NCBI GenBank assembly: GCA_036557285.1
Contig: DATBHW010000016.1
Coordinates: 6,995-70,994 of the forward strand
DNA: 64,000 bases
Source: Ktedonobacterales bacterium
GTDB lineage: Bacteria > Chloroflexota > Ktedonobacteria > Ktedonobacterales > DATBGS01
Direction of reading: 5' to 3'
Shown: positions 1,580 to 34,479 of the stretch, piece by piece
Position numbering within the stretch: position 1 is the first letter of the stretch
Layout: each line of letters starts with the position of its first letter
Program-made: the position numbers and the translations under genes
Notes under the pieces: model-generated
Databases searched by the model: none
What the model was told of the DNA's origin: nothing
What the model saw: the letters and a program-made list of their open reading frames with translations, nothing else

Positions 1580-3070
1580 ATGAGTACAGATATATTGCTA
1601 GCAAATACCTATTTTCTGAATCGTGACCCCACCGAACTCCGCAATATGCGGCCCTATGCCCCGCTGGGTATTCTCTATCTCGCTGCCCATGTGCGCCAGC
1701 AAGGCTATGCTGTCAAGGTTTATGACAACACCTTTCGCCCCGACGAACACGCCTTCTTTCGCGCGCTGGAAGAGAGCAACGCCCGCATCGTCGGCTTCCA
1801 CAGCATGTTTATCAGCCGTTCGTCCGCAGAACGGCTTATTCAGGGAGCCAAAGAGCGCGGCTGCACCGTCATTTGTGGCGGGCCAGATGCCACCGTCGCA
1901 CCTGACCTCTACCTGAAGACCTATGGCGCGGATTACGTTGCCTTCAGCGAGGGCGAACACACGATAGAAGAACTGCTCGGCCATCTGACCGGCAAGACGC
2001 AGACGCCGCTCAACAGTATCCAGGGCATCGCTTACCTCGACGAAAACAAAGAAATTGTGCAGACACCCTCGCGCGCCCTGATGCGACACCTGGATGCGCT
2101 GCCCGAACCGGCCCGCGACCTCATCGATCTGGGCGAGTACCTGCACGCCTGGAAGAAGCATCACGGCTTCACGTCGCTACATCTCATCACTTCGCGTGGG
2201 TGCCCCTTTGGGTGCGCCTGGTGCAGTCGCGCCGTGTTTGGCCGCAACTATCGCCTGCGCGACCCCGAACTGGTTGCCCAGGAGATCAGGCGCATCAAAG
2301 ATGACTGGAAGCCAGATCACATTCGCATTTCTGACGATATTTTTGGGGTCAACAAGCAGTGGATTATCCGCTGGCGGCAGGCAATGGAAGAGCACGACGC
2401 TGTAATTCCTTTTGAGTGCCTTTCGCGGGTGGACCTTCTGGCGCCCGAACTGCTCGATAACCTCAAAGCGGCTGGCTGCGTGCGCATCTGGTGCGGCGTG
2501 GAGTCCGGTTCCCAAAAAGTGCTGGACGCAATGAATAAAAACATCAAAGTCGAGGAGAGCTATCGAGCCGCGCAGTTGATGAAAGAACGCGGCATCAAGC
2601 GCGCCTTCTATATCATGCTGGGCTATCCAGGAGAAAAACGCGAAGACATCCAACGGACCAAAAAGCTCTTGCTCGATAACCTGCCTGAAACTGTCTCGAT
2701 CTCCGTCGCCCATCCCATTCGCGGCACGTTCTTCTATGATGCCGTCGAAGAATATTTAGGGCAGGAGCGCGAGGACTGGAAAGAAACCAGTGAGAACCGC
2801 CTGATGCACCCGGCGGAGTTTTCAGGCGTTTTCTACAAACGCCTGGTCAGCTATCTGACCACATTGGTCTACTTCCGCCAGCGTCCCTTGCTGGACCGCC
2901 GCAACCTGTATGACCTCCCCAAGCTGGCGGCGCTGCGCGTGCTGACCTGGTGGCATGGCTGGCGTAGCGAAGGCAAAGACCCCCGGCTGGCCCGTGTCCT
3001 TACTGTAGCGACGCAAGCCGGAGCAAAGCAAGCGGCAAGCGCCGAGGCCAAATTGCATCATGTTGCTTAG
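1580..3070 (+). CDS. B12-binding-domain radical SAM enzyme (COG1032 type), copy 1
   Basis: 496-aa ORF. N-terminal B12-binding-like Rossmann segment (PLGILYLAAHVRQQGYAVKVYD). Radical-SAM cluster motif 'SRGCPFGCAWCS' (CxxxCxxC). SD-like GAGGAA lies 9 nt upstream of the ATG. Confidence 0.85.
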   Translation: MSTDILLANTYFLNRDPTELRNMRPYAPLGILYLAAHVRQQGYAVKVYDNTFRPDEHAFFRALEESNARIVGFHSMFISRSSAERLIQGAKERGCTVICGGPDATVAPDLYLKTYGADYVAFSEGEHTIEELLGHLTGKTQTPLNSIQGIAYLDENKEIVQTPSRALMRHLDALPEPARDLIDLGEYLHAWKKHHGFTSLHLITSRGCPFGCAWCSRAVFGRNYRLRDPELVAQEIRRIKDDWKPDHIRISDDIFGVNKQWIIRWRQAMEEHDAVIPFECLSRVDLLAPELLDNLKAAGCVRIWCGVESGSQKVLDAMNKNIKVEESYRAAQLMKERGIKRAFYIMLGYPGEKREDIQRTKKLLLDNLPETVSISVAHPIRGTFFYDAVEEYLGQEREDWKETSENRLMHPAEFSGVFYKRLVSYLTTLVYFRQRPLLDRRNLYDLPKLAALRVLTWWHGWRSEGKDPRLARVLTVATQAGAKQAASAEAKLHHVA

Positions 3071-4868
3071 ACGGCTCTTTGCCACCACTACCGGCGCCAT
3101 TGTCTCCAAAGGCGCGGCTATCATCACGGCGCTGCTGCTCTTTCGCCAGCTACCAACAGCAGACATGGGCCGCTACACCGCCGCGTTCACGCTGGTGAGC
3201 TTCTGCGCCATCCTGGGCAACTCCGGGCTGAATCCGCTGACTACCCGCGAGATCGCCCGACGCGGCGAAGAAGGGTGGGGGTGGTGGACAGCTATCGCGC
3301 CCTTACGCCTGCTGCTGGCGCTCGGAGCGTATGGTCTGCTGGTGGTGATCGCTTTGTTCGTTCCTTCGCTGGTAGACCCACGCCTGGCGCTGGTGGCTGG
3401 GCTGCTCCTGGCGCCCGACGCGCTGGCCGGGGCGCTGGCTGCCACACTCGGCGGGATAGGCCAGGCCACGCTGGCAAGCTGGCTGGACGCCCTCAGCAAA
3501 CTTATCGGCCTGATCGCCACGCTGGCGCTTGTGGTGATCTGGCGCGCTGATGTGTTGGCGCTGGCCTGGCTGGCTGTGGCGCTGGCCGCAGGAACGCTGC
3601 TCTTCAACGGGCTGGCGCTGGTAAGCCAATGGCGCGGCACGCGATTGAACCACAGAGGTTGGCGCTGGAACCCCGGAAACTGGCGCATCCATCTGCGCCT
3701 GAGAGGTTCCTCAACTACCCCCTCTTCAGGTACCTTCTCTCCCTCTGATACACCAGATGGCCTTTCAGGCTCATCGAAGATAAGGCCGATCTGGACACAC
3801 GAGCATGCGCAAGAATCTCTCCTGACTGGGACGCGTGAAGGAGAAAAACCTTCTCGTAACCGGTCCTGGCGCCGGAGCGCGCTCAAATGGGAGATTGTTC
3901 GTCAACTGCCCAACCGCCTGCTCTCTGATTGGAAATATGCCCTGGCAGCGGCGCTGCCATTAGGACTGGGGGCGCTGGCCGCCACCTTCTATTTTCGCGT
4001 GGATACCCTCTTTCTCAGCGCCGCTCGTGGTGGACGCGCCGTCGCGTACTACAACGCACCCTACCAAATCGTTGAGGCCTTCTGGCTTATCTCCACCAGT
4101 TGGAACGCAGTCATGCTCCCAGTCCTGGCCCGGCATTACTCGCCGCGATTCGTTGAGCGTTCGATTGCGCTGCTGCTTAGTATCGGCCTGCCTGCCAGTC
4201 TGGTCATTACCTTTCGTGCCGATGATATAGTCATGCTGGTCTTTGGCCCAGCCTATTTGCCAGCAGTGCTGCCGCTGCGGTTGGTGATCTGGGTCGTACC
4301 CATCCTCTTCAGCTACGTTCCCCTGGTGACAGCCCTCTTCGTGCATGATCGCCAGCGCGATGTCTTGTACGTGCTGCTGGCGAATCTGGTGCTGGCGCTG
4401 CTGCTGAATGCCTTACTCATCCCACCCTACGGAGTAGCAGGCGCTAGTATCGCTACTCTGATTGTAGAGGCTATTGGACTCATTGGCTATGTGTGCATGG
4501 CGCGGCGCGCCAATCTAGGGGTTAGCTGGGCAAGTGGCCTGGTCGGGCCGCTATCCATCTGCGCTCCGCTCGCAGCAATTCTGCTGATTGGGCAGGCGCT
4601 GCCCTTCTTCTTTATTATGCCAGCCACGCTCATGCTCTGGGCAGCCCTGTTTGCCTTGTTTCGTCCCTGGGCAGGCTGGCCGATAAACCCGCAGTTTTTC
4701 TCTCCACAAGGGGCGCGGGGCCAGTTTGAGCGAGTACGAACAGAAACTGCGGGCCAGGAACGTGAAGACCGTGCTGATGGGCCTGGTCACGCAAACGCTC
4801 AGCCGCCAGCCGACGATACGATAGTCAATACACGCCAGCCAGCATCTCAAGGAACGGAGGTTTCGTGA
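3060..4868 (+). CDS. Wzx/MurJ-like polysaccharide (lipid-linked oligosaccharide) flippase with long internal hydrophilic loop
   Basis: 602-aa ORF made of many hydrophobic helices in two blocks, separated by a roughly 90-aa Arg/Ser/Gly/Pro-rich loop (about nt 3640-3900). The ATG overlaps the upstream stop by 11 nt. The family call rests on topology and composition only. Confidence 0.65.
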   Translation: MLLRRLFATTTGAIVSKGAAIITALLLFRQLPTADMGRYTAAFTLVSFCAILGNSGLNPLTTREIARRGEEGWGWWTAIAPLRLLLALGAYGLLVVIALFVPSLVDPRLALVAGLLLAPDALAGALAATLGGIGQATLASWLDALSKLIGLIATLALVVIWRADVLALAWLAVALAAGTLLFNGLALVSQWRGTRLNHRGWRWNPGNWRIHLRLRGSSTTPSSGTFSPSDTPDGLSGSSKIRPIWTHEHAQESLLTGTREGEKPSRNRSWRRSALKWEIVRQLPNRLLSDWKYALAAALPLGLGALAATFYFRVDTLFLSAARGGRAVAYYNAPYQIVEAFWLISTSWNAVMLPVLARHYSPRFVERSIALLLSIGLPASLVITFRADDIVMLVFGPAYLPAVLPLRLVIWVVPILFSYVPLVTALFVHDRQRDVLYVLLANLVLALLLNALLIPPYGVAGASIATLIVEAIGLIGYVCMARRANLGVSWASGLVGPLSICAPLAAILLIGQALPFFFIMPATLMLWAALFALFRPWAGWPINPQFFSPQGARGQFERVRTETAGQEREDRADGPGHANAQPPADDTIVNTRQPASQGTEVS

Positions 4869-6466
4869 AAGTACATCGCAGAGTTCTTTTCTATCAGCCA
4901 TATTGCTTCGACGGTTTCCCACGCATGCCGCTGCCTTTGATGTCGGTGGCGCGCATGGTAGATCGTGAGACCTTGGAGCCAATCATCTTCGATGCCAACG
5001 TTGATAAAGACGCGCTAGAAAAGCTGCTGGCCGCTGCTGCCGATAATCCCCTGCTGATTGCCATGAGCGTGATGCCCGGCGATCAAGTGGGCAATGCCTA
5101 TGAGCATAGTAAACTCTTGAAGGCTCGCTATCCTGATCTGCCCATCATCTGGGGCGGCTATTTCCCTTCCATGTATCCCGATACCTGTCTGAAGACTGGT
5201 ACGGTTGATGTGCTGGTCAAAGGTTATGGCGAACCAACGTTTGCCGAATTGATAGCACATTATGCCAGCGGCGGCGCTGCCGCTGATCTGAAGGGCATTG
5301 CTGGCACGATCTATCTGCGCGATGGCAAAATTGTCACCGAACGCCGACGGCTGCTGCAAGACCTCAACCGCTATCCGTCGCTGCCTTATGATCTGGTTGA
5401 TCTGCCGCGCTACATCGCGCCCACCTGGCACGCTGACCGCAACGTCTTCTACATCTCCAGCCAGGGCTGCCCCTATGAGTGCGGTTTTTGCGCCATTCCT
5501 GCTGTCGGGGGGCGCAAATGGGCCGCCTACGATGCCGACAGAGTGATCGAAGATGTCAGGTTCTTTGTCGAGCAGTATGATGCGAACGGCATCACCTTTG
5601 GCGACACCGAGTTTTTTGTTAGCGAAGCGCGCGTGCGCGGCATCGCGCAGGGGTTGATCGATCTGGGCAGCCCGGTGACGTGGTGGGCAATGGGTACGAT
5701 TGCCCGGCTGGTACACTTTCAAGAGTCTACCTGGCGTCTTCTGGAGCAGAGCCGCTGCGCGGGCATCTTCGTGGGCGCGGAATCTGGCTCTGATGAAACG
5801 CTCCAGGTCATGGGCAAGGCCAGCACCGTTGCTGATACTCTGCGCCTGGCGGAAATCTTCAAGCAGCACAGCATCCTACCAGAGTTTTCGTTCGTCCTGG
5901 GCTATCCACCGCATCCCGAAAAAGATATTGACGCCTCGCTAACGCTGATGAAGACCCTACGCGCGATGAATCGTAAAAGCCACTTTATCCCTCACGTTTA
6001 TACACCCTTGCCCGACACCGGCAACTTTGACCTGGCAACCGAACATCACTTTGCCTCGCCAACCACGATGGAAGGCTGGCTGGAGGGCCGCTGGCGCGAC
6101 TTTGGGCGCATGCACCATCCTCACACCCCCTGGCTGGAGGGCAGGCGTGGCAAGTTCCTGCACGATTTCGAGATCGTTGTGCAGTACAGCAACCGCGTCT
6201 GGGCCAACAAAGCGCCGGGGATGGTTGGACCAATCTCCTTCGCCTTGCTCAAAGCCTCCTGTTCGCTGCGCTGGCAGACCGGCTTTTTCCGCTATCCCTA
6301 TGAGTTGCAATTCCTCTGGAAAGCCGGGCGTGCTTTCGCCCGGCTGCGCGATGGAGAGATTCCCTTGCCGGGACCGCGCCCATCGTGGAAGCAGTATCGC
6401 TGGCGGCGGGCGCGACCAGGCAAGAGCCGCTCAGCCTTCCCCCCATTTCAGGAGGCTCGCGCATGA
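4865..6466 (+). CDS. B12-binding-domain radical SAM enzyme (COG1032 type), copy 2
   Basis: 533-aa ORF. The GTG start overlaps the flippase stop (GTGA) and has GGAGG 5 nt upstream. N-terminal B12-binding-like region. 'SSQGCPYECGFCAI' CxxxCxxC motif. Confidence 0.85.
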   Translation: MKVHRRVLFYQPYCFDGFPRMPLPLMSVARMVDRETLEPIIFDANVDKDALEKLLAAAADNPLLIAMSVMPGDQVGNAYEHSKLLKARYPDLPIIWGGYFPSMYPDTCLKTGTVDVLVKGYGEPTFAELIAHYASGGAAADLKGIAGTIYLRDGKIVTERRRLLQDLNRYPSLPYDLVDLPRYIAPTWHADRNVFYISSQGCPYECGFCAIPAVGGRKWAAYDADRVIEDVRFFVEQYDANGITFGDTEFFVSEARVRGIAQGLIDLGSPVTWWAMGTIARLVHFQESTWRLLEQSRCAGIFVGAESGSDETLQVMGKASTVADTLRLAEIFKQHSILPEFSFVLGYPPHPEKDIDASLTLMKTLRAMNRKSHFIPHVYTPLPDTGNFDLATEHHFASPTTMEGWLEGRWRDFGRMHHPHTPWLEGRRGKFLHDFEIVVQYSNRVWANKAPGMVGPISFALLKASCSLRWQTGFFRYPYELQFLWKAGRAFARLRDGEIPLPGPRPSWKQYRWRRARPGKSRSAFPPFQEARA

Positions 6467-7248
6467 CCCTCTCAACATCCCTGCGCCGCGTGCTGGGCCG
6501 ATACTCAGCTGCGCCTCAGCAGCTTGGTGTGCTGGAAGGGTATGCTCGCTGGGCAGCCACCTACGAGCAGGACATGGAAGGGCACCCGCTGGCCCTGGCC
6601 GAGTCCGGCGCTATTCTTGCCTTGCTGCCGTCATGCCAGGGCATCATCGCCCTGGATGCCGCCTGTGGAACGGGCCGCTACACCCGTATACTGGCAGCGC
6701 GGGGCGCGCGGCAGGTCATCGGCATTGATCAATCAACCGCTATGCTGGAACGCGCCCGCGAACTCAACACGCCTGAGCCTGGCGCTGAGATGCTCTTCAA
6801 GCAGGGAAACCTGCTCGATTTGCCGCTGGCTGATCACTCTTGCGATCTGGCAATTGTGGCGCTGGCGCTGGCTCATCTGGAAACCAGGCAACTCAGCCGC
6901 GCGTTTGCTGAGCTAAGTCGGATACTCAAACCAGGCGGCATGCTGCTCATGTCAGAGATGCACCCCTTTGGCGCGCTCACCGGGGGTCGCTGCCGCTTTG
7001 AGATACGCCAGGACAACCAGCAGCAGATTTATCATATTCAGACCCATACCCATCTGCACGAAGACTATCTTGCCGCCGCCAGCAATGCTGGTCTGGCTCT
7101 GGAAGCCCTGCGCGAGCCGCGCCTGTCACCCGATCTTTTCCCGGCCTTCGAGCGCGCCAATATGGGTACGTTTGCCCGCCAGTTTGCAGGATTTCCCCTC
7201 GCGCTGGTCTGCTGCTGGCGAGCCAGGGCAGAGAACCTGCCAACCTGA
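6463..7248 (+). CDS. class I SAM-dependent methyltransferase
   Basis: Motif I 'ALDAACGTGRYT' and 'ILKPGGMLLMSE'. I chose the internal ATG at 6463 because it forms an ATGA overlap with the upstream stop and has GGAGG 7 nt upstream. The longest ORF in the track starts at 6385. Confidence 0.8.
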   Translation: MTLSTSLRRVLGRYSAAPQQLGVLEGYARWAATYEQDMEGHPLALAESGAILALLPSCQGIIALDAACGTGRYTRILAARGARQVIGIDQSTAMLERARELNTPEPGAEMLFKQGNLLDLPLADHSCDLAIVALALAHLETRQLSRAFAELSRILKPGGMLLMSEMHPFGALTGGRCRFEIRQDNQQQIYHIQTHTHLHEDYLAAASNAGLALEALREPRLSPDLFPAFERANMGTFARQFAGFPLALVCCWRARAENLPT

Positions 7249-7295
7249 CATGATGACGGAACGAAGAGAGAACCATTAACAGAAGGGCAGAGCGT

Positions 7296-8255
7296 ATGAT
7301 TATCTCGAAACCCCGCTCGCTCCCCATCAGCGAGCAGCAGCCAGCGTCAGCAGCAGATGCGCGGCTGGCTGTGCTGCGAGGGTTGGCATACTCGGATATT
7401 TTCGATTACGCTCCAGACCGCTCTGCACTCTATTACACGCTGGAATACCCAGGCATCTCACGCGCTCGCTTCGAGCAAACCCTCCAGGAAATGCAAGCAG
7501 AAGGGACTATCATTGCTGACGACGAGCGATGCATGCTGGCGGGCCGAGAGGCGCTTTCAGCCATCTGGCGACGCCGCCAGCAGCAATCAGCACAGAAATG
7601 GCAGGCGGCCCGCCGCTATTCGGCGTTGATTCGCTGTCTGCCATTTATACGTATGGTCGCCGTCACCGGACCACTCGCTGTGCAAAGCGCCGAAGCCCCT
7701 GACGACATTGATCTCTTTCTCATTACCGCGCCGGGCCGTGTCTGGTTGGCACGCGCTCTGACCATCGTCATCGTGCGGCTGGCCGCGTTGTCCAGATTGA
7801 CCCTCTGTCCCAACTATTTGATTGCCACAGACGCGCTGGAGGTTTCCGAGCGCAACCTCTATACCGCGCGCGAACTCGTCCAGATGCAGCCGCTCTACGG
7901 CGCAGGCTGGCATCAGCAGCTACGCGCGCACAACCGCTGGACGCTGGACTATCTGCCCAACGCTGAGATCGCCGCTGCCCCTACCGCCCTCCCACTGGAT
8001 CGCTTGCCATATAGCACGCGTCTCTTGAAATCGCTAGGTGAACGTCTGCTAGGAGGGAAACCAGGCACAGCGATGGATCGCTGGGAAATGCGCCGCAAGG
8101 TGCGCAAGTTTCTTCGGGGGCGAGCGCCCGCTGCTCTTGAAGAAGCCAGTTTCACACCCGCGCAGTGCAAAGGGCATTTCAACGGCCATGCCGCTCGTAT
8201 TCTTCAGCACTTTCACGAGCGCATTGACGCCGTGTCAGCAGCCCAGGGGGAGTAG
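7296..8255 (+). CDS. hypothetical protein, possible nucleotidyltransferase-fold
   Basis: 319-aa ORF with SD-like GAAGGG upstream. The segment 'VAVTGPLAVQSAEAPDDIDLFLI' fits a minimal NTase G-x(n)-DxD pattern. I recognise no other motif. Confidence 0.55.
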   Translation: MIISKPRSLPISEQQPASAADARLAVLRGLAYSDIFDYAPDRSALYYTLEYPGISRARFEQTLQEMQAEGTIIADDERCMLAGREALSAIWRRRQQQSAQKWQAARRYSALIRCLPFIRMVAVTGPLAVQSAEAPDDIDLFLITAPGRVWLARALTIVIVRLAALSRLTLCPNYLIATDALEVSERNLYTARELVQMQPLYGAGWHQQLRAHNRWTLDYLPNAEIAAAPTALPLDRLPYSTRLLKSLGERLLGGKPGTAMDRWEMRRKVRKFLRGRAPAALEEASFTPAQCKGHFNGHAARILQHFHERIDAVSAAQGE

Positions 8256-8260
8256 AGCAC

Positions 8261-9781
8261 ATGGCTGCCAGGGGAATACTCACGTGGAGACAAGCGGGTA
8301 CTGGCGCTAATCTGATTGGCCGACTGGCGCTGGGACTGGAACGCCTGGCTCTGGCAGCGTTTATCATCACCATCTTGTTGCTCGGCTATTGGAGAGCCAT
8401 ACCGCTTAGCTGGTTCTCGCAAAGCTGGGCCGTCAGCAGCCAATATCAACTCGTGACCCTCTTCAATCCCCAATATCGGGCAATCATCCTCTATCCCAGC
8501 GACATCGCCGCTGCTGTAACAATTACGCTCTGCCTCCTTGGGCGCATTGCCGCCAGCATCACCCGACAGGAGCGTGCACCCCTGCGCTTCGGCCCGCTCT
8601 ATTTGATGCTCCCAGTGATCGGGATGGCGGCGCTTTCAGCTCTCAGTGCCACGCAGGCTGTTCTTCCCATTTTATCTCTCGAAATCGCGCTGCACCTGTT
8701 GTTCCTGGCAGCCCTGGTCATAGCCATCATTAATCTACGCCCTCCACTGTGGGCTGTAGCGGCGCCATTAGCGTTGCTGCTGGCAATAGAAGGGCTGCTG
8801 AGCCTGTTGCAGACGCTGGCGCAATCAACTTTGCTGGGTCCATTGCTCTTCAACTGGAGCCACAATATCACTGCTGCGCAGCCCGAAGCCAGTATCGTAC
8901 AATTGCCTGACGGGACACGCTGGCTGCGCGCCTATGGAAGCCTGCCCCACCCCAATATCCTGGGCGGGCTGCTGTGTCTGGCAATCCCAGTAGTCGCAGG
9001 CAGCTATCTGCGCCTGCCCCGCCGTAGCCTGGCCGCAGGCTGGCGGGCGTGGCTCCTGCTCATATCGCTCGGGCTGGGTCTGCTGGCGCTCTTACTCAGC
9101 TTTTCACGCGCAGCCTGGCTAGGTGTCTTCATCGCCGCACTCTGGGCGGGCTTACTCCTCTGGCAAAGGCGTCGTGTCGCCCGTCACCAGCCACCCGTTT
9201 CATCATTCGCTCCTCAGAACACCTCGCTCCATCTCTCTGAAGCAGCGCGGCGCCTGGCCTTTTTGTGCTTGCTCGGTGCTGGGCTGCTGGTTAGCCTGGT
9301 AGCAACGCTTGGCCCTGCAATACAATCACGGCTGCTCTTGAGCAACTCGACTCTGGAGCAGCGTTCGCTGAGCGAGCGAGCGATCTTACTAGAAGCGGGC
9401 GCAACCTTCTTCACACAGCACCCCTGGCTGGGGGTTGGCGCGGGCAACATGCCGCTTGTCGAACTCTCCTACCCTCCAACGCGCAATATAGGCGAATCCA
9501 CTCACAACGTTCCCATCGCTATTGCCGTCGAAACCGGACTCTTTGGCATGCTCCTCTGGCTGCTTCCTCCCATTGTCACGCTCTGGTACACCTGGGAGCG
9601 CCGCTTCGCGCTCTCAGCCGCCGGGCTGGCCGCATCCGTGGCGCTGATAGCTCTGAGCATTGTCGCACAGCTCGACCATTACCTCTGGACACAACCCACT
9701 GGCAGCCTCATCTGGTGGCTCGCCGTCACACTGGTGGCTCTTTGGAGCGAGCGCAGCAGCAACGAAGCCACGATACACTAG
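8261..9781 (+). CDS. O-antigen ligase / Wzy_C-domain polytopic membrane protein
   Basis: 506-aa ORF with at least 10 hydrophobic helices. The 'LLLSFSRAAWLGVFIAALW' region and a following periplasmic-type loop resemble O-antigen ligase-like proteins. It starts 5 nt after the previous stop. Confidence 0.7.
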   Translation: MAARGILTWRQAGTGANLIGRLALGLERLALAAFIITILLLGYWRAIPLSWFSQSWAVSSQYQLVTLFNPQYRAIILYPSDIAAAVTITLCLLGRIAASITRQERAPLRFGPLYLMLPVIGMAALSALSATQAVLPILSLEIALHLLFLAALVIAIINLRPPLWAVAAPLALLLAIEGLLSLLQTLAQSTLLGPLLFNWSHNITAAQPEASIVQLPDGTRWLRAYGSLPHPNILGGLLCLAIPVVAGSYLRLPRRSLAAGWRAWLLLISLGLGLLALLLSFSRAAWLGVFIAALWAGLLLWQRRRVARHQPPVSSFAPQNTSLHLSEAARRLAFLCLLGAGLLVSLVATLGPAIQSRLLLSNSTLEQRSLSERAILLEAGATFFTQHPWLGVGAGNMPLVELSYPPTRNIGESTHNVPIAIAVETGLFGMLLWLLPPIVTLWYTWERRFALSAAGLAASVALIALSIVAQLDHYLWTQPTGSLIWWLAVTLVALWSERSSNEATIH

Positions 9782-9882
9782 CAGAGCGCCTCTGCCACTG
9801 GCGGCAAACCTCGCCCGGCGCTACAATTTATCATTATCACCATCTTCTTACTATCAAAGAGTTTAGAAGGAGTTACCATCCT

Positions 9883-10752
9883 ATGCGTCGGGATAAACAG
9901 GCAGAGCCGCCATCTGACGACCATCAACCTCCCAGGAAACAGGCAAGGCAAACAGCGCCGCCCGCGCATCATGCTGTGCCGCCTGTACCAAATCCGAGTC
10001 TGAGCCGACGCGCTCGCCTGGGGCGACCAACCTCTGACGAGCAGCTTCTCCAGCGGCCCACGCGCAAGGAAGAAGCGCTCGCAATTGATTTTACCCACAC
10101 GGACCCCTGGCGTGTCCTGCGAATTATAGGCGAATTTGTCGAGGGCTTCGATACGCTGGCCCATATCCATCCTGCCGTGACCTTCTTTGGCTCGGCGCGT
10201 GTGCATCCAGCCGACCCCATGTACGAGGCAGCCTACCAGACCTCCAAACGCTTAGCGCAGGCAGGCTTTAATATTATCACTGGTGGCGGACCCGGCATCA
10301 TGGAAGCAGCGAACTGTGGAGCGGCGGACGGCGGCAGCAAATCGGTTGGCTGCAATATCGAACTACCACACGAACAGAGCCTCAACGCCTACGTGCAAAT
10401 CTCCATTAACTTCCGCTACTTCTTTGTACGCAAAACCATGTTTGTCAAATACGCCGAGGGCTTCGTGATCTTCCCTGGCGGCTTTGGCACTATGGATGAA
10501 CTCTTCGAGGCGCTCACACTCATCCAGACGGGCAAAGTGGAGATGTTCCCCGTCATCCTCTTTGGTTCGCGCTATTGGGAAGGGCTGCTCAACTGGATCA
10601 AAGCAACCATGCTGGCTGAAGGCAAAATCTCGCCTGAAGACCTCGATCTCTTGCAGATCACCGATTCGCCAGAAGAAGTCAGTCAGATCATCTTGAGCAA
10701 CTACCATACGAGGCAGAACGGCTCACCACCAATCCCTGGCACGCTGCGCTAG
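9883..10752 (+). CDS. LOG-family (TIGR00730-type) nucleotide 5'-monophosphate nucleosidase with Pro-rich N-terminal extension
   Basis: 'ITGGGPGIMEAANCGA' and 'PGGFGTMDELFEALTLIQT' signature motifs. The ATG at 9883 is preceded by AGAAGGAG. The track ORF begins at 9715. Confidence 0.85.
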   Translation: MRRDKQAEPPSDDHQPPRKQARQTAPPAHHAVPPVPNPSLSRRARLGRPTSDEQLLQRPTRKEEALAIDFTHTDPWRVLRIIGEFVEGFDTLAHIHPAVTFFGSARVHPADPMYEAAYQTSKRLAQAGFNIITGGGPGIMEAANCGAADGGSKSVGCNIELPHEQSLNAYVQISINFRYFFVRKTMFVKYAEGFVIFPGGFGTMDELFEALTLIQTGKVEMFPVILFGSRYWEGLLNWIKATMLAEGKISPEDLDLLQITDSPEEVSQIILSNYHTRQNGSPPIPGTLR

Positions 10753-14202: not shown

Positions 14203-15123
14203 TCAGTGGGAAAACCGCGCCACCCGCACCGCCTCATCGCGGTACATCAATAAGAAATTCCACAGCGCCAGGGCCGCAGCGGAAAGATGCCTGCCGCGCC
14301 GCCGCACCAGCGACCAATGGCGATGGACCGGGAAGCCCACCACATCCAGAATCACCAGCCGCCCGACGATCAACTCTAGCTCCAGCGCGCGCAGCGGCAT
14401 GACCGAAATGCCCAGGTCAGCCGTTACTGCTTGTTTGATTGCGCCGCTGCTGCGTAGTTCCATCCCCACATGAACCGGCGCGCCCTTTCCCAGAAAATGA
14501 TGCTCCACATCGGTTCTGGTTCCCGATCCTGCCTCGCGGAGCAGGAAAACCTCCTTGCTCAGTTCCTCAAGGGGGATATTCTTCATGCCCGCCAGGCGAT
14601 GGCGCGGCGAAGCAATCACCACCAGTTCATTGGGTACGAACTCAGCGACATCCAGATCATGGGTATCCTCAATCAACCCCATAACAGCCATATCCACCTC
14701 GTCATTCAGCAGCCGCTCTTGCACCGTAAAGCGATTGACCACATCCAGCGTCAGCTTCACATCAGGGTTCTGACGATGAAAGGCCCCCAGCACTGCGGGG
14801 ACAATATAAATGCCCGCCGTCGTGCTGGCCGCAACCTTCACCGTCCCACGTCGCGCGCCGCTTAGCTCTTCCAGCACAAGCTGTGTCTCATCCATCAGCG
14901 CAAAAATGCGCTCGCTATAACTCAGGAGTTCATTGCCAGCCTCGGTCAGCCGCAGCGTTCGGCCAACTTTCTCGAAGAGCGGCAGGCCAACACTGCGCTC
15001 CAGCGCCTTGACCTGCAAAGAGACCCCTGGCTGACTGAGAAACAGCACTTCCGCTGCCCGCGAATAGCTGCGCTGCTGCGCCACCGCCTGAAAAATGCGT
15101 AGTTGGTGCAGATTAATAAGCAT
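14203..15123 (-). CDS. LysR-family transcriptional regulator
   Basis: 'LHQLRIFQAVAQQRSYSRAAEVLFLSQPGVSLQVKALE' HTH followed by a substrate-binding domain. It is divergent from aceA-aceB. Confidence 0.9.
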   Translation of the reverse strand: MLINLHQLRIFQAVAQQRSYSRAAEVLFLSQPGVSLQVKALERSVGLPLFEKVGRTLRLTEAGNELLSYSERIFALMDETQLVLEELSGARRGTVKVAASTTAGIYIVPAVLGAFHRQNPDVKLTLDVVNRFTVQERLLNDEVDMAVMGLIEDTHDLDVAEFVPNELVVIASPRHRLAGMKNIPLEELSKEVFLLREAGSGTRTDVEHHFLGKGAPVHVGMELRSSGAIKQAVTADLGISVMPLRALELELIVGRLVILDVVGFPVHRHWSLVRRRGRHLSAAALALWNFLLMYRDEAVRVARFSH

Positions 15124-15208: not shown

Positions 15209-15528
15209 TATCAAATGGATAAAAAACTTATATGAACGATTATAATGGCAGCGGCAGGCTCCTGGTAAAAAAGCGAAACAATAGATGCGGCTACCTCAGG
15301 CCAATCAACATCAGGCTTCATAAGCATACGATCTTGAGGCAGATACATCGCCGCGCCTCGTGGAGATAAGGAAATATTTATTGATTCGATAAGTAACAGA
15401 GACTGGATTTTATAGGAAAACCCTGTTATGACTCTAATAACAACGTTTTGTGCCCGCTGCTTTGGGCGCTAGCGGGCCAGTGTCAGGCAGATGAACGAGC
15501 AAAATCGCCAGAAAGGACCAGATACCCG

Positions 15529-16803
15529 ATGACCCAATACCTTGCCGAACTGGCTACCACATGGAAAGAAGACCCGCGCTGGGCGGGCATCATTCGACCT
15601 TATGCTGCGGAGGACGTAGTGCGCCTGCGTGGTTCCATCCACATCGAATATACGCTGGCTCGCCTGGGCGCAAAACGCCTGTGGGAGCTTCTGCATACGG
15701 AGCCGTATATTGCCGCCCTGGGGGCGCTGACTGGCAATCAGGCCATGCAGCAGGTGAAAGCAGGCTTGCAAGCCATTTACTTGAGCGGCTGGCAGGTAGC
15801 GGCTGACGCCAACCTTGCCGGACACATGTACCCCGACCAGAGCCTCTACCCCGCTAACAGCGTTCCACAGGTCGTGCGTCGCATCAATCAGGCGTTGCAG
15901 CGCGCCGACCAGATTCATCATGCCGAAGGCAAGAACGGCATCCACTGGTTTGCGCCGATTGTCGCCGACGCCGAAGCAGGCTTTGGCGGTCCCTTGAACG
16001 TGTTTGAGCTAATGAAAGCCATGATCGAGGCCGGAGCCGCTGGCGTCCATTTTGAGGACCAACTTGCCTCCGAGAAAAAGTGCGGCCATATGGGCGGCAA
16101 AGTCCTGGTACCCACTGCAACCGCCATCAAGCATCTGGTCTCCGCGCGGCTGGCCGCCGACGTGATGGGCGTGTCCACACTCATTATCGCCCGCACCGAC
16201 GCCAACGGCGCGCACCTGATTACCAGCGACATTGACTCCCGTGACCATCGTTTCCTCACCGGGGAGCGCACTTCCGAAGGCTTCTTCCGCATACGCGCCG
16301 GGCTGGATACCGCCATAGCCAGGGGTCTTGCCTACGCTCCCTACTGCGACCTGATCTGGTGCGAAACCTCCGAGCCGAATATTGATGAGGCCTGCCGTTT
16401 CGCTGCCGCCATTCACGAGCAGTTCCCCGGCAAGCTCCTCGCCTATAACTGCTCCCCCTCCTTCAACTGGAAGAAAAAGTTGGACGCGCGCACCATCGCC
16501 ACCTTCCAGCAGCAGCTTGGAGAGATGGGCTACAAGTTCCAGTTCGTCACGCTGGCGGGCTTCCACGCCCTCAACTACAGCATGTTCGATCTGGCAAGCG
16601 AATACCGCGCGCGCGGCATGGAGGCGTACTCCGAACTGCAACAGGCCGAGTTTGGCCGCGAAGCCGATGGCTACAGCGCAACCCGCCATCAGCGCGAGGT
16701 GGGCACCGGCTACTTCGATGAGGTCGCGCTCGCCATTTCCGGTGGCGAAGCCTCTACCCTGGCTTTGACCGGCTCAACCGAACTGGCCCAATTCCACGCA
16801 TAA
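15529..16803 (+). CDS. aceA: isocitrate lyase
   Basis: '[13 protein letters not shown]' isocitrate lyase signature and full-length similarity pattern. I chose the ATG at 15529 ([18 protein letters not shown]); the track ORF starts at 15448. Confidence 0.95.
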
Positions 16804-16832
16804 GCCAATGACCGGCCACATATTCTATAATG

Positions 16833-16858
16833 ATACCGGAGCGAAATCGCTCCGGTAT
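16833..16858 (+). promoter_or_regulatory. intercistronic stem-loop between aceA and aceB
   Basis: 11-bp perfect stem (ataccggagcg / cgctccggtat) with a 4-nt loop, followed by a pyrimidine-rich tctcctgtctc. Confidence 0.4.
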
Positions 16859-16902
16859 TCTCCTGTCTCTGAGAAGAGCCTTCTGGCAGAAAGAAGCAAA
16901 CG

Positions 16903-18513
<1,611 letters not shown>

Positions 18514-30599: not shown

Positions 30600-31526
30600 A
30601 TGTCAGCGCCGCTGATTACCCTGACAACCGACTTCGGGCAGGCCGATGGCTACGTTGGCACGATGAAGGGCGTTATCCTCAGCCGCGCCACGCACGCACA
30701 GATCATAGACCTGAGCCATGAAATCCCCCCGCAAGGCATCGCGGCGGGCGCATTCGTCCTCTATCGCGCCTACCGCTACTTCCCGCCCCGGACTATCCAT
30801 GTAGCCGTCATTGATCCTGGCGTGGGTACTGCCCGGCGCGCCTTGCTGCTGATGACAGGCCAGGGTCGCTTTATCGGGCCAGATAACGGCCTCTTCAGCT
30901 ATGTACTGCGCGAGGCTATCGCCCTGGCCGCTGGATGGACCGGCACGCCCGCCAGTGTCCCCGCCGTCTGGCATCCAGACTTTGACCTCGAAGCCGTCCT
31001 ATCCACCACGGCGCGAGAGCGCCTGCCCACTGCCTACGCGCTGACCAACCCGGCCTACTGGCTGGAAGGGCCTGGCGCGCCCGCGCGAGCCGCAGGCGTC
31101 ACCTTCCAGGGCCGCGACCTCTTTGCGCCCGTCGCGGCGCATCTGGCGAATGGCGTCGCGCCCGCCGAACTCGGCCAGCCCGTCCCGCTGGAGAGCCTGA
31201 CGCTGCTGCCGACATCGAGACCCATCCGCTCGCCTGGCGTCATCGAGGGCCGCGTGATTGCCGTTGATCACTTCGGCAATCTGATCAGCAACATCGCGGC
31301 GGGCCTGCTGCCCACACTGGGACCGTTGGACGCGCTTCAGGTATCGCTTGGCGCATATCGGCTGCCGGGTGTTCATACCACCTACAGTGCGGCGCAGCCC
31401 GGCCAGCCGCTGGCCCTTATCAACAGCGCGGGCCTGCTGGAAATTGCCATCCGCGAAGGCCACGCCGCCCATCAGCTAGGCGGGCGCGTCAGCGACACCA
31501 TATTCTGTAGGAGCGCGAGCGGTTGA
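30600..31526 (+). CDS. SAM hydroxide adenosyltransferase / SAM-dependent halogenase family (DUF62) protein, variant
   Basis: 'LTTDFGQADGYVGTMKGVI', 'IDPGVGTARR', 'GPDNGL' and 'TFQGRDLFAPVAAHLANG' are present. The Gln at nt 31107-31109 sits where I recall a His (FHGRD) in hydroxide-type members. Confidence 0.8.
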   Translation: MSAPLITLTTDFGQADGYVGTMKGVILSRATHAQIIDLSHEIPPQGIAAGAFVLYRAYRYFPPRTIHVAVIDPGVGTARRALLLMTGQGRFIGPDNGLFSYVLREAIALAAGWTGTPASVPAVWHPDFDLEAVLSTTARERLPTAYALTNPAYWLEGPGAPARAAGVTFQGRDLFAPVAAHLANGVAPAELGQPVPLESLTLLPTSRPIRSPGVIEGRVIAVDHFGNLISNIAAGLLPTLGPLDALQVSLGAYRLPGVHTTYSAAQPGQPLALINSAGLLEIAIREGHAAHQLGGRVSDTIFCRSASG

Positions 31527-31565
31527 TTTCGCTTGTTATCTCGACAATTTCAGAAGGGATAGCTT

Positions 31566-32126
31566 ATGCTCACACTTTTCTATTCGCCTCATATGACCAG
31601 CGTTGATAACGAGGCCGGGCGCGCGTCCGGCCATGCCAATGTCCCACTCTCTGACGCTGGGCTTCAGCAGGCGCGCGAACTTGGGCAGCACTACGCCACA
31701 GCCGCCCTTGATGCCGTCTTCTGCTCCGACCTTCAGCGCGCCTCTCTGACGGCTGAAATCGCTTTCGCCGGGCGTGGACTACCCCTTGCACCAGATGCCC
31801 GCCTGCGTGAGTGTAATTATGGGTCACTGACACAGCAGCCGCCTGCTCAAATCGAAGCAGAGTTCTTGCAACGTATTGCCGAGCCATTCCCCAACGGCGA
31901 AAGCATGCGCATGGTCGTGCAGCGCGTGGGCGCATTTCTGCGCGATGTTCTGCGCGACTATGATGGGAAAACCATCGTCGTAATCGGCCATCGGGCCACC
32001 AAATATGGCCTGGAGTACTGGTGTGGGAATACTTCACTTGAGGAGATTGTCTCTGCGCCTTGGGAATGGCGAGACATTCCCATCTGGCGCTATGAACTGC
32101 ACGCCCACAACCTTGAGAAGTCGTGA
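31566..32126 (+). CDS. histidine phosphatase (phosphoglycerate-mutase-like) family protein
   Basis: N-terminal 'SPHMTSVDNEAGRASG' (catalytic-His segment of a subfamily lacking the canonical RHG Arg) and a distal 'VVIGHRATKYGLEYW' His motif. Confidence 0.75.
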   Translation: MLTLFYSPHMTSVDNEAGRASGHANVPLSDAGLQQARELGQHYATAALDAVFCSDLQRASLTAEIAFAGRGLPLAPDARLRECNYGSLTQQPPAQIEAEFLQRIAEPFPNGESMRMVVQRVGAFLRDVLRDYDGKTIVVIGHRATKYGLEYWCGNTSLEEIVSAPWEWRDIPIWRYELHAHNLEKS

Positions 32127-32243
32127 CAGAAGAGAAACCTGTTGCCAGCAAACGCGCAATTTCTGACCGGATGCGCTATAGTTGAGAAGAAACGTAACCG
32201 AGTCGCCCGCCCCACGTATTTTCAAGAAGAAAGGAGATACTCG

Positions 32244-33661: not shown

Positions 33662-33737
33662 AGACTCCCTGTGAGAAGGGAGATAGAGTAGCAGGAACTC
33701 AGCATAAGAAACCAGTATCAGAAAGTTGAGGAACTGT

Positions 33738-34346: not shown

Positions 34347-34479
34347 GGTCACGCGCTATCGCCGTCTTTCTCTTCAGGTTCTACTCAAAAGCCGGGGGTG
34401 CTACTTGCGTGTACCGCTGCCAGGGACGGCAGCGCATCGTTCGCCAACGCGAACGCTGGCGCACCGAAGGAATGAGCGT

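Follow-up and report, generated by a model that had tools for sequence, protein, structure and literature searches.

An operon of six coupled genes

What might an operon make that joins two radical SAM enzymes to a flippase and a Wzy_C-domain membrane protein, with no glycosyltransferase beside them? The locus lies in a 64-kb stretch of DNA, here called the window, from a soil Ktedonobacterales (Chloroflexota) MAG. An original prediction, made from the nucleotide sequence alone, had proposed a dedicated pathway acting on an envelope glycan or lipid around the flipping step. All six genes are on the plus strand. A radical SAM enzyme of class B architecture (rSAM1, or R1; positions 1580-3070; 496 aa) is followed by an MOP/PST-type, Wzx-like flippase (3060-4868; 602 aa) and by a second radical SAM enzyme of class B architecture (rSAM2, or R2; 4865-6466; 533 aa). 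A class I SAM-dependent methyltransferase (MT; 6463-7248; 261 aa from ATG 6463), a protein of an unannotated family that we call UNK (7296-8255; 319 aa), and a polytopic Wzy_C-domain protein (8261-9781; 506 aa) complete the set. The first two genes overlap by 11 nt (3060-3070), the flippase and rSAM2 genes share GTGA at 4865-4868, and the rSAM2 and MT genes share ATGA at 6463-6466. The remaining gaps are 47 nt (7249-7295) before UNK and 5 nt (8256-8260) before the Wzy_C gene. Shine-Dalgarno-like GGAGG/AGGAGG motifs occur 5 to 7 nt upstream of GTG 4865 and ATG 6463. The longest MT reading frame begins at GTG 6385, and ATG 6463 is favored as the start because of the AGGAGG motif in front of it. 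An RNA contig (6364-6534) bridges the rSAM2/MT junction, and others cover UNK (7297-7447, 7516-7666, and 7973-8155); a metatranscriptome contig covers flippase positions 3665-3829. The translationally coupled six-gene operon is real, and the open reading frames, junctions, motifs, and domains originally claimed were all present when rechecked.

The gene upstream (48-1349) is divergent to the operon, and the downstream neighbor belongs to the LOG family and is conserved in only part of the relatives; the operon ends therefore fall inside the window. Pfam scans of 56 window ORFs over the 64 kb yielded no glycosyltransferase, sugar-nucleotide enzyme, or chain-length regulator. The scanned set comprised the ORFs of 200 aa or more that were not shadow ORFs, except four without a match (33726-34346, 34267-35022, 35969-36706, and 36761-37846). 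Likewise, no gene for a priming phosphoglycosyltransferase was found in the operon or the 64-kb window.

The two radical SAM enzymes

Domain searches and gene order agree on two enzymes with B12-binding and Radical_SAM domains on either side of the flippase. In Pfam, rSAM1 showed an N-terminal B12-binding domain (64 bits) and a Radical_SAM domain (97 bits), and rSAM2 the same domains at 56 and 50 bits, all above gathering cutoffs. Their cluster motifs are CPFGCAWC and CPYECGFC, respectively, and at 25% identity the two are distant paralogues. Placement against NCBIfam models put neither enzyme in a characterized family: no curated family cutoff was reached by either, and the top model for rSAM1, BchE, reached 139 bits where 481 is required, with no equivalog attained. 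A literature search found no paper describing a locus of such make-up, so the earlier statement that the combination matches no characterized locus stood.

The AF2 model of rSAM1 (pLDDT 89) resembles most closely the folds of AprD4 (TM 0.71/0.77, E 1e-23), MgmA, and TsrM. AprD4 had the top TM-score but came second in PDB sequence matches, where MgmA/QCMT (PDB 9CCB) was the top match for both rSAM1 (2e-23) and rSAM2 (4.6e-14); MgmA/QCMT also gave the top Foldseek E-value for rSAM1 (7.6e-24). The leading PDB sequence matches of rSAM2 were MgmA and AprD4. MgmA/QCMT, the methyl-coenzyme M reductase glutamine C-methyltransferase, is only 22% identical, and its model TIGR04014 gave 129 bits (cutoff, 360). 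The host is no methanogen, and no conserved gene for a protein substrate was found. AprD4, the paromamine 1,2-diol dehydratase, has the domain architecture of the operon's rSAMs and acts on a carbohydrate, as do GenK/GenD1 and MoeK5 of secondary metabolism, and we count the rSAM1 fold toward a sugar substrate because this top TM-score neighbor acts on a carbohydrate. However, identity to AprD4 is only ∼21%, the NCBIfam model for AprD4 gave 81 bits (cutoff, 500), and AprD4, GenK/GenD1, and MoeK5 handle soluble antibiotic intermediates rather than polymers of the envelope and lack an NTase partner. AprD4 is a sugar diol-dehydratase that is not known to use cobalamin. With this as the closest fold to the modeled rSAM1, cobalamin use by rSAM1 and rSAM2 is unproven, and the B12-dependent methylation originally proposed is not established.

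The methyltransferase and the membrane proteins

The flippase matched Polysacc_synt in Pfam at 59 bits (cutoff, 28.2) and MurJ weakly. Simple hydropathy prediction gave it 13 hydrophobic segments, and it carries a hydrophilic low-complexity insert at residues ∼195 to 300. MT matched Methyltransf_11 and Methyltransf_25 (83 bits, above Pfam gathering cutoffs) and obtained only generic scores, at the level of UbiE/BioC/CpaM, in NCBIfam. The last protein matched Wzy_C at 68 bits (cutoff, 31.7), which places it in the superfamily of O-antigen ligases, polymerases, and O-oligosaccharyltransferases. The same hydropathy method gave it 11 hydrophobic segments, and a search for a PDB sequence relative found none.

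The UNK protein

Pfam and NCBIfam searches gave no family match for UNK, which belongs to a family of 6,757 clusters at 50% identity. In its AF2 model (pLDDT 90.9), the N-terminal domain is a winged helix of the canonical helix-first type, which Foldseek matched to DtxR (probability 0.99). The NTase domain matched MntA (probability about 1), and Foldseek returned no whole-chain match. The motif TG..(x11)..DDIDL is present, and its DxD is invariant in the family; the C-terminal helical domain after the NTase domain has CPNY and KGHF motifs, which are invariant too. NTP_transf_2 was a weak Pfam match in 16 of 44 family members, and the window UNK matched no NTase HMM. On the strand that follows DxD, where the invariant CPNY stands instead, we recognized no third catalytic carboxylate; this reading comes from an alignment and a secondary-structure map rather than a structural superposition. 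UNK is predicted to be a winged helix joined to a minimal nucleotidyltransferase of the MNT/Pol-beta type.

Proteins with the NTase fold of the LicD/fukutin/FKRP type, which decorate glycans from CDP-activated donors, are encoded in glycan loci and are sometimes fused to glycosyltransferases. Their DxD is comparable to the G..DDID of UNK. However, none of the 44 UNK family members had a LicD Pfam match at an E value of ≤1, and no FKRP or LicD entry was among the top 50 Foldseek matches, the nearest being MNT antitoxins. UNK also has the additional N-terminal winged helix.

Conservation of the module across Chloroflexota

Comparison of gene neighborhoods revealed six-gene synteny in five or six other Ktedonobacterales contigs: the order is complete in L006, L007, and L010 and is kept in L008, L009, and L089 as far as sequence is available. 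The rSAM1 orthologues are 84 to 93% identical within Ktedonobacterales and 36 to 51% identical in other Chloroflexota, where they adjoin or are fused to UNK. Across 77 species-representative loci, R1 lies directly 3' of UNK in 64; 4 of these pairs are fused in one ORF, 33 overlap or abut, 24 are within 150 nt, and 3 are within 400 nt. Pairing or fusion of UNK and R1 was seen across hundreds of species. Gene fusions of at least six independent kinds link the components. In L006, one continuous ORF of 1084 aa comprises the flippase and rSAM2, rSAM2::MT occurs in L092, and UNK is found elsewhere as GT4::UNK, UNK::GT4, GT2::UNK, and Wzy_C::UNK (the last in P0161/L090), with R1 next on the contig after both GT2::UNK and Wzy_C::UNK. 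Synteny in relatives, translational coupling, and these Rosetta-stone fusions argue that the genes are a functionally linked unit. Of 41 long loci, defined as those with at least 6 kb on each side of UNK, 34 have a class I methyltransferase together with UNK-R1. Judged by these neighborhoods, the core conserved throughout Chloroflexota consists of UNK and an rSAM1-type enzyme, in most cases along with a class I methyltransferase. Of the dedicated pathway first proposed, the association with the glycan and membrane steps that surround flipping was borne out, by the L006 fusion and those of UNK; the six-gene set itself is not the conserved unit, the core being smaller and much more widely distributed.

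Within 10 kb of UNK, 30 of the 41 long loci have a gene for a flippase, Wzy_C protein, GT4, GT2, GT-A, or GT-C; a Wzy_C gene is present in 18 loci and a flippase gene in 13. The closest outside relative, L092, is collinear (R1 - R2::MT - UNK - GT2 - Wzy_C) and has GT2 in place of the Ktedonobacterales flippase. The lack of glycosyltransferase genes originally noted held within the window but proved peculiar to Ktedonobacterales, since GT4, GT2, GT-A, and GT-C genes adjoin or are fused in the relatives' loci. Genes for GT87 and PMT/ArnT-like GT-C proteins also occur beside UNK-R1. GT4 genes are common in genomes, and their co-occurrence could partly be background. Clusters in relatives also contain PNP_UDP_1 nucleosidase-like or deaminase-like amidohydrolase genes, consistent with by-product salvage in which 5'-deoxyadenosine and SAH would be removed, a role that we infer. 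In 11 of the 41 long loci there is no recognizable glycan gene within 10 kb of UNK-R1; glycan-free examples are L088, the group L014/L016/L022/L040, and the four-rSAM clusters L013/L035/L074.

Proposed pathway and its alternatives

On balance, and with modest confidence, we think that the module tailors a lipid-linked envelope glycoconjugate in the cytoplasm by radical and methyl chemistry, and that flipping and Wzy_C transfer follow. The gene content, synteny, fusions, and fold-level identities described above were observed directly; the substrate, chemistry, and order of steps we infer. Weighing against this reading are the lack of glycosyltransferase, priming, and sugar-nucleotide genes in the window, the long loci in which UNK-R1 has no glycan gene nearby, and, for UNK as an NTase, the missing HMM match and third carboxylate. 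Glycosyltransferases encoded elsewhere in the genome would build a polyprenyl-phosphate-linked (or nucleotide-activated) saccharide at the cytoplasmic face. Both class-B-type rSAMs would modify it, by C-methylation at unactivated carbons or by an AprD4-like dehydration or deoxygenation, and the class I methyltransferase would contribute an O- or N-methyl group. UNK, as an obligate partner of rSAM1, would most likely put a nucleotidyl or phospho-linked group on the sugar substrate; the radical step could use that group as a handle or as a leaving group, much as Fom1 serves Fom3. Alternatively, it may attach the modified unit in a LicD-like manner. The MOP flippase would carry the completed lipid-linked unit to the other side of the membrane, and the Wzy_C protein would transfer or polymerize it onto the final acceptor. 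To our knowledge, Chloroflexota lack LPS, so the LPS core is excluded as that acceptor and the protein is not a literal O-antigen ligase.

Several known systems resemble parts of this scheme. Wzx/Wzy-dependent assembly of O-antigen, capsule, and EPS (with WaaL, Wzy, and PglL-type enzymes) likewise combines an MOP/PST flippase with a polytopic Wzy_C protein, and its adjacent GT4, GT2, and GT-A genes recall the relatives of the operon. The operon itself has no glycosyltransferase, priming transferase, sugar-nucleotide gene, or chain-length regulator, and no described Wzx/Wzy locus has a core of an NTase-like protein and a B12-type rSAM. The GtrA/B/C, ArnC/ArnT, and mycobacterial GT-C/GT87 systems follow the same modify-flip-transfer logic, with a polyprenyl-phosphate-linked unit and a polytopic outer enzyme. 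However, they use GtrA or ArnE/F rather than an MOP-type flippase and a classical GT-C rather than Wzy_C, and radical SAM tailoring is foreign to them. In the fosfomycin pathway, a nucleotide serves as the handle on the rSAM substrate, through the cytidylyltransferase domain of Fom1 and the cobalamin rSAM C-methyltransferase Fom3. This pairing of a nucleotidyltransferase with a class B rSAM parallels UNK adjacent or fused to R1, although the likeness would be mechanistic only: Fom1 has a Rossmann/MobA-like transferase fold and UNK a Pol-beta/MNT-type fold, Fom3 was missing from the PDB and NCBIfam matches of the rSAMs, and the context is phosphonate in one case and envelope glycan in the other.

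We consider it unlikely that the substrate is instead a membrane lipid or glycolipid, with the rSAMs methylating or cross-linking acyl or isoprenoid chains or tailoring a glycolipid head group, and the flippase and Wzy_C-like protein then redistributing or anchoring the lipid. Chloroflexota are known for mid-chain-methylated lipids, and the two rSAMs gave NCBIfam scores with HpnJ (132 and 86 bits), a ladderane-type lipid rSAM (112 and 82 bits), and HpnR (88 and 42 bits) that are as weak as those with all other families, but all lipid families scored 4 to 15 times under their curated cutoffs. The GT2 recurring beside or fused to UNK has matches like Glyco_transf_21, a family that includes glycolipid synthases. 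Three of the best 80 loci come from Acidobacteriota bins, which also speaks for a lipid, although the Acidobacteriota contig L016 may be mis-binned, being syntenic with Chloroflexota loci L014, L022, and L040. Moreover, no recurrent fatty-acid, isoprenoid, or glycerolipid gene was found near UNK, and its recurrent partners, GT4, GT-C, Wzy_C, and MOP, are typical of a polyprenyl-linked glycan pathway. Somewhat less probable still is a fragment of an ordinary exopolysaccharide or O-antigen-type cluster in which the rSAMs are routine sugar tailors and UNK is an accessory or regulatory protein without catalysis. The standard Wzx/Wzy components, the plain GT4 and GT2 genes of relatives, and the resemblance of the UNK winged helix to a DNA-binding domain would suit it, but the obligate pairing or fusion of UNK with R1 in hundreds of species and the invariant DxD, CPNY, and KGHF motifs speak against it, and fusion to enzymes is not what one would expect of a regulator. 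That a 2026 review of B12-rSAMs lacks the words polysaccharide, glycan, and lipid also argues against routine tailoring; GenK and MoeK5 are among the sugar-acting enzymes that it lists. These two enzymes work on secondary metabolites.

A peptide or protein substrate, recruited by the UNK winged helix, methylated by the rSAMs and methyltransferases in the manner of MgmA, Mmp10, or proteusin systems, and exported by a MOP/MATE-like transporter, seems improbable, slightly more so than the ordinary cluster. The top PDB match of both rSAMs to MgmA/QCMT, a 134-bit score for the RiPP rSAM model ApyD in NCBIfam, and a weak match of the flippase to the tryglysin MATE exporter WgkD point in its direction. 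So do the B12-rSAM paralogues of some relatives, which number as many as three inside 10 kb around UNK (four on the L074 contig), and, in some relatives including glycan-free clusters, a HemK-like N-methyltransferase (NPPY motif) with a SPASM-type rSAM, a pair more typical of peptide or protein modification. No shared precursor was evident, however, among intergenic small ORFs (25 to 130 aa) of ∼85 loci, the commonest being a cold-shock-domain protein in 3. The PqqD/RRE fold has a strand-first topology, unlike the helix-first winged helix of UNK. The fusion partners of UNK are GT4, GT2, and Wzy_C, not peptide-processing domains, and the breadth of its family is housekeeping-like, unlike that of typical RiPP clusters. 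Chance adjacency of unrelated genes, for which only the absence of glycosyltransferases in the window speaks, is effectively refuted by the coupled junctions, the synteny in six relatives, and the fusions.

Tailoring of a lipid-linked envelope glycoconjugate is thus the reading that we prefer. The six-gene operon is the local form of a Chloroflexota-wide UNK-rSAM module, and this pairing of UNK with a B12-type rSAM, previously undescribed, is repeatedly linked to envelope-sugar genes across the Chloroflexota.

Organization and expression of the operon

The operon comprises six plus-strand ORFs, encoding a radical SAM enzyme (rSAM1; 1580-3070), a flippase (3060-4868), a second radical SAM enzyme (rSAM2; 4865-6466), a methyltransferase (6463-7248), a protein of an unannotated family that we call UNK (7296-8255), and a Wzy_C protein (8261-9781). 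The junctions described in the original prediction (an 11-nt overlap, GTGA, ATGA, and gaps of 47 and 5 nt) were all borne out, as were the motifs CPFGCAWC, CPYECGFC, and DDIDL, and good Shine-Dalgarno motifs precede GTG 4865 and ATG 6463. Pfam matches, each above the gathering cutoff, were to B12-binding and Radical_SAM for rSAM1 and rSAM2, Polysacc_synt for the flippase, Methyltransf_11/25 for the methyltransferase, and Wzy_C for the last gene.

The upstream gene is divergent, and so no upstream gene lies on the operon transcript. That gene, a Xaa-Pro-dipeptidase-like amidohydrolase (48-1349), was considered as a member of the system since the clusters of two relatives (L001 and L087) contain an amidohydrolase; it was rejected as unproven. 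The L087 amidohydrolase is deaminase-like, and tblastn gave no link between the two. Downstream lies a LOG or lysine-decarboxylase-like (TIGR00730) gene on the plus strand (9715-10752), whose longest ORF shares 67 nt with the 3' end of the Wzy_C gene. This ORF has a low-complexity N-terminal extension of about 150 amino acids, the conserved part starting near 10132. Judged by gene order in relatives it is probably outside the operon, and we rejected it as a member: it is found downstream in L007 to L009, but L006 and L089 have a sigma-70 region-4 gene instead.

The window DNA has exact matches in soil metagenomes, and two soil metatranscriptomes contain short contigs identical to parts of the flippase gene (3665-3829), the rSAM2/methyltransferase junction (6364-6534), and the UNK gene (three contigs). 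The operon genes are thus probably transcribed, with at least one junction (rSAM2/methyltransferase) cotranscribed; coverage is very low, and the contigs may stem from carried-over DNA. The sparse, short contigs document expression and one junction-spanning fragment and stop short of the operon ends. A promoter and terminator scan over the operon gave counts no different from those of shuffled sequence.

In Pfam scans of 56 window ORFs, taking in the non-shadow ORFs of at least 200 amino acids, neither a glycosyltransferase nor a sugar-nucleotide enzyme nor a chain-length regulator was detected. The combination of glycosyltransferases, priming transferase, and sugar-nucleotide genes in one locus that marks a conventional O-antigen or exopolysaccharide (EPS) cluster was likewise not seen among these ORFs; genes of this kind were encountered only in relatives outside the Ktedonobacterales. 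Elsewhere in the window are an ordinary glyoxylate shunt arrangement of isocitrate lyase and malate synthase genes beside a divergent LysR regulator gene (15448-18513 and 14203-15123), and, on the plus strand (30600-33605), a gene for a SAM hydroxide adenosyltransferase (DUF62; fluorinase/chlorinase superfamily) followed after about 0.6 kb by a cytochrome P450 gene, a SAM-cleaving enzyme thus being paired with an oxygenase. The products of four consecutive minus-strand genes (57375-60840), namely, an AAA_33 kinase-like protein, a PF09414 RNA ligase, a class I methyltransferase, and a dual-specificity phosphatase, resemble an RNA-repair cassette of the Pnkp/Hen1 type. At 61006-63014, a tandem pair of HtrA-like trypsin-PDZ protease genes precedes a LuxR-type regulator gene.

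Distribution and synteny

UNK and rSAM1 have their best relatives in Ktedonobacterales metagenome-assembled genomes, with 72 to 79% identity for UNK and 84 to 93% for rSAM1. The full six-gene order was found in L006, L007, and L010, and the same order over the available sequence in L008, L009, and L089; in the loci compared, this order is conserved only within the Ktedonobacterales. When one genome per species was scanned by pattern and tblastn, at least 553 UNK relatives were recovered. By their labels, the best 80 of these are from Chloroflexota except for three Acidobacteriota bins, and among the lineages represented are the Ktedonobacterales, Anaerolineae, Caldilineales, Ardenticatenaceae, Promineifilaceae, Chloroflexia, Thermomicrobiales, Limnocylindria, and one member of the Dehalococcoidia. 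An exhaustive HMM search placed 6,757 clusters at 50% identity in the UNK family (E ≤ 1e-3), 2,747 of them at E ≤ 1e-30.

The gene directly after UNK encodes an rSAM1-type enzyme in 64 of the 77 loci with enough downstream sequence, and a single gene separates the two in 4 further loci. Among the 64, the pair is fused in 4 (L019, L045, L070, and L082), overlaps or abuts in 33, and is spaced by up to 150 nt in 24 and up to 400 nt in 3. Of the 41 long loci, those with at least 6 kb available on both sides of UNK, 40 had an rSAM1-type enzyme, 34 had a class I methyltransferase, and 16 had an rSAM2-type paralogue; a locus usually has one to three B12-type radical SAM enzymes. By gene neighborhood, then, what is conserved phylum-wide in Chloroflexota is a core of UNK and an rSAM1-type enzyme. 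The dedicated pathway tentatively proposed in the original prediction was right in direction; its unit is this pair and not the six genes together.

UNK or rSAM1 copies also occur in bins labelled Acidobacteriota, Polyangiaceae, and Myxococcales (L016, L054, and L081; proteins P0276 and P0281). The synteny of L016 is also seen in Chloroflexota loci, and P0276 and P0281 share 84% identity with the window rSAM1, which suggests mis-binned contigs and not transfer; L016, from an Acidobacteriota bin, may be such a case. Outside the Chloroflexota, a Candidatus Kryptonium thompsonii contig (L093) encodes an rSAM1-type enzyme of 44% identity, with a methyltransferase and a beta-propeller protein and without UNK.

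The UNK protein

UNK matched no Pfam and no NCBIfam model. An AlphaFold2 structure built on a 44-sequence alignment of the family had a pLDDT of 90.9, and Foldseek matched residues ∼20 to 85 to a DtxR-type winged helix and the central part to MntA, a minimal nucleotidyltransferase (probabilities, 0.99 to 1.0; ∼1 for MntA). These matches were at the domain level, and no full-length analogue was found by Foldseek. The N-terminal domain is predicted to be a DtxR-like helix-first winged helix and not a PqqD-like RRE. A nucleotidyltransferase signature, T-G..(11)..D-x-D (T124-G125 .. D137-I-D139), is invariant in the 44 sequences; together with the modeled alpha/beta core it agrees with the hG[GS]-x9-13-DxD motif that defines the Pol-beta superfamily (MNT type). 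A CPNY strand and a C-terminal KGHF are also invariant. Pfam NTP_transf_2 matched 16 of the 44 members weakly (best E value, 2.8e-4; the window UNK not among them), Polbeta matched 6 weakly, and the alignment profile gave a single candidate in the PDB, an MNT antitoxin, at an E value of 1.6. The label "nucleotidyltransferase-like" attached to this protein by the original prediction is therefore supported at the level of predicted fold. As read from the alignment and secondary-structure map, the strand after the DxD motif (residues 170 to 177) contains the invariant C-P-N-Y but lacks an acidic residue; with no third carboxylate identified there, nucleotidyl transfer by UNK is putative. UNK does not appear to belong to the LicD or FKRP families, with no LicD match in the 44 members (E ≤ 1) and none in the top 50 Foldseek matches.

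The two radical SAM enzymes

Both rSAM1 and rSAM2 have the class B architecture, in which a B12-binding-type Rossmann domain at the N terminus precedes a radical SAM TIM barrel with a CxxxCxxC motif (CPFGCAWC and CPYECGFC, respectively), and they are paralogues with 25% identity. Neither reached the equivalog cutoff of any NCBIfam model (BchE, HpnJ, HpnR, MgmA, PhpK, ladderane-type lipid radical SAM, AprD4, ApyD, BzaD, and others). The scores of rSAM1 against the cutoffs were 139/481 for BchE, 134/750 for ApyD, 132/578 for HpnJ, 129/360 for MgmA, 112/360 for the ladderane-type model, 88/650 for HpnR, and 81/500 for AprD4, and rSAM2 scored lower on each of these models. The best PDB sequence matches were MgmA/QCMT (9CCB) and AprD4. 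With scores so far under the cutoffs, assignment of either enzyme to a known family was rejected.

The rSAM1 model (pLDDT, 89) superposes on MgmA, AprD4, TsrM, OxsB, CysS, and TokK. E values were equal, at ∼1e-23, for MgmA, AprD4, and TsrM, and the top TM-score was for AprD4, a paromamine 1,2-diol dehydratase that is not known to use cobalamin. With this spread of matches the chemistry may be C-methylation or a sugar dehydration of the AprD4 type, and cobalamin use is putative. As to the archaeal and bacterial tetraether or ring-forming lipid enzymes (Tes, GrsA/B, and GDGT-MAS), no PDB chain described as a lipid-acting radical SAM enzyme was found among the sequence matches (E ≤ 1e-3) or the top 50 Foldseek matches.

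Membrane proteins, fusions, and glycan-gene context

The flippase belongs to the MOP (Wzx-type) class by its Polysacc_synt score of 59 bits against a cutoff of 28.2, and its MurJ score of 23.8 was below the Pfam cutoff. Simple hydropathy gave 13 hydrophobic segments, about 12 to 14 transmembrane segments being expected for this class. A hydrophilic insert of about 100 amino acids, rich in Ser, Thr, Pro, and Arg (window 3640-3960; residues ∼195 to 300), separates its two halves; the alignment with the L010 orthologue breaks exactly there (query 217 to 308), indicating that the insert is variable. The last gene product, with 11 hydrophobic segments, is a Wzy_C superfamily member (68.3 bits against a Pfam cutoff of 31.7) that could act as ligase, polymerase, or O-OTase. 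Searches of PDB sequences with the flippase and the Wzy_C protein gave no matches, and hence no solved Wzy_C relative is detectable by sequence.

Five fusions were found among the top 150 UNK family representatives: GT4::UNK (P0128 and P0186), UNK::GT4 (P0143), GT2::UNK (P0133; locus L091), and Wzy_C::UNK (P0161; locus L090). In the last two, the rSAM1 gene comes next on the contig, starting within the fused ORF, and P0133 is preceded by a Wzy_C gene and two GT4 genes. The other operon components are fused as well, the flippase to rSAM2 in one continuous 1,084-residue ORF in L006 (5788-9042) and rSAM2 to the methyltransferase in a 719-residue ORF in L092 (11532-13691). L092 holds the closest rSAM1 relative outside the Ktedonobacterales (50% identity), and its order of rSAM1, rSAM2::methyltransferase, UNK, GT2, and Wzy_C is collinear with the window operon, with a GT2 in place of the flippase.

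In 30 of the 41 long loci, one or more glycan-assembly families are represented within 10 kb of UNK; 18 loci have Wzy_C, 17 have GT4, and 13 have a flippase. Recurring neighbors of the UNK-rSAM1 pair are class I methyltransferases, MOP flippases, Wzy_C proteins (some with an Ig-like insert), GT4s, a membrane GT2, GNT-I-like GT-A, PMT/ArnT-like GT-C, GT87, and a PNP_UDP_1 nucleosidase-like protein. By our estimate, which assumes few copies per genome, the co-occurrence of Wzy_C and MOP flippase with the pair is far above background. The lack of a glycosyltransferase remarked on in the original prediction thus holds for the window but not for the system: with such genes adjacent or fused in relatives, and a GT2 where the flippase stands in L092, their absence is a trait of the Ktedonobacterales arrangement.

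Some neighborhoods have features of their own. The nucleosidase-like gene is found in L046 (7581-8354) and 14 other loci, and L087 encodes a deaminase-like amidohydrolase (15694-16962) with weak matches to 5'-deoxyadenosine and MTA/SAH deaminases; such enzymes might remove by-products of the radical SAM and methyltransferase reactions. In an Anaerolineae-type arrangement (L001, L030, L051, and L087), an alpha-glucan set of two GH57, GT5/GT4 glycogen-synthase-like, GlgC-like, and GH77 genes lies directly upstream of the module, and GT87 and two PMT/ArnT-like GT-C genes follow it. A variant cluster (L013, L035, L074, L044, and similar loci) runs UNK-R1-R2-R1'-MT-(HemK-like NPPY N-methyltransferase)-R2'-(SPASM-like rSAM), where R1, R2, and MT are the rSAM1, rSAM2, and methyltransferase types; it has up to four B12-type radical SAM enzymes and no glycan gene within reach. 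The UNK-rSAM1 core may serve more than one pathway.

Function of the operon

We consider it modestly probable that the operon tailors and exports an envelope glycoconjugate. Modification of a lipid or glycolipid is an unlikely alternative; the weak HpnJ and ladderane-type similarities and a GT21-like GT2 would suit it, but lipid genes do not recur at the loci. It is quite unlikely that the locus is a fragment of an ordinary EPS cluster in which UNK has an accessory or regulatory role, a reading disfavored by the fusions and the invariant catalytic-type motifs. Peptide or protein modification we regard as very unlikely. The MgmA similarity, the HemK-like N-methyltransferase and SPASM-type radical SAM enzyme of some relatives, and the 11 of 41 long loci without glycan genes point that way, but no small ORF is common to more than three loci, the winged helix of UNK is not RRE-like, and the fusions go to glycan enzymes. 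A RiPP cluster was rejected: in the search for a conserved precursor-peptide gene, clustering gave a cold-shock-domain protein as the most widely shared intergenic small ORF, in 3 of ∼85 loci, and no RRE domain was recognized in UNK. Chance adjacency of the genes is effectively excluded.

For the tailoring and export of an envelope glycoconjugate, the components and their linkage are observed, and from them we infer the steps. A lipid-linked saccharide would be built by glycosyltransferases encoded elsewhere and tailored at the cytoplasmic face by UNK and rSAM1, with rSAM2 and the methyltransferase. The flippase::rSAM2 fusion would put rSAM2 at the flippase, and the rSAM2::methyltransferase fusion would join the radical and methyl steps. 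The product would be exported by the MOP flippase and attached or polymerized outside by the Wzy_C protein. UNK could install a nucleotidyl handle or leaving group, in the manner of Fom1/Fom3 or of ANT-like sugar O-nucleotidylation, or could transfer a phospho-linked substituent, as LicD does. A more specific proposal, which we put forward tentatively and with some doubt, is that UNK and the rSAM1-type enzyme form an unrecognized two-component enzyme, a single polypeptide in some lineages, in which a Pol-beta-type nucleotidyltransferase would nucleotidylate, or phospho-transfer onto, a sugar in a lipid-linked glycan of the envelope and the class B radical SAM enzyme would then C-methylate or deoxygenate it, a phylum-wide and undescribed envelope sugar modification of Chloroflexota. 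If this is true, the pair would provide the first envelope-polysaccharide substrate for class B radical SAM enzymes.

A literature search on B12-radical SAM enzymes of Chloroflexi/Chloroflexota with O-antigen ligase or Wzx found nothing relevant, and the words polysaccharide, glycan, and lipid are absent from a 2026 review of B12-radical SAM enzymes. The components come from known superfamilies; the core of nucleotidyltransferase-like protein and B12-radical SAM enzyme is undescribed, very widespread, and experimentally approachable. The natural fusions would serve as evidence of physical association, and UNK::rSAM1, flippase::rSAM2, and rSAM2::methyltransferase are ready constructs for biochemistry.

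Little is known of the envelope chemistry of the Chloroflexota, a phylum abundant in soil, sediments, and wastewater. UNK, which lacks a Pfam or NCBIfam model, is tied to a cobalamin-type radical SAM enzyme, and is fused to GT4, GT2, and Wzy_C in relatives, points to a conserved, uncharacterized envelope modification, and its nucleotidyltransferase-like family gains a concrete candidate role. Class B radical SAM chemistry, which acts on antibiotics, cofactors, and proteins, may extend to glycans of the cell surface, and the operon offers candidate genes for unusual methylated or deoxy sugars, and possibly for cobalamin-dependent envelope assembly, in the Chloroflexota.
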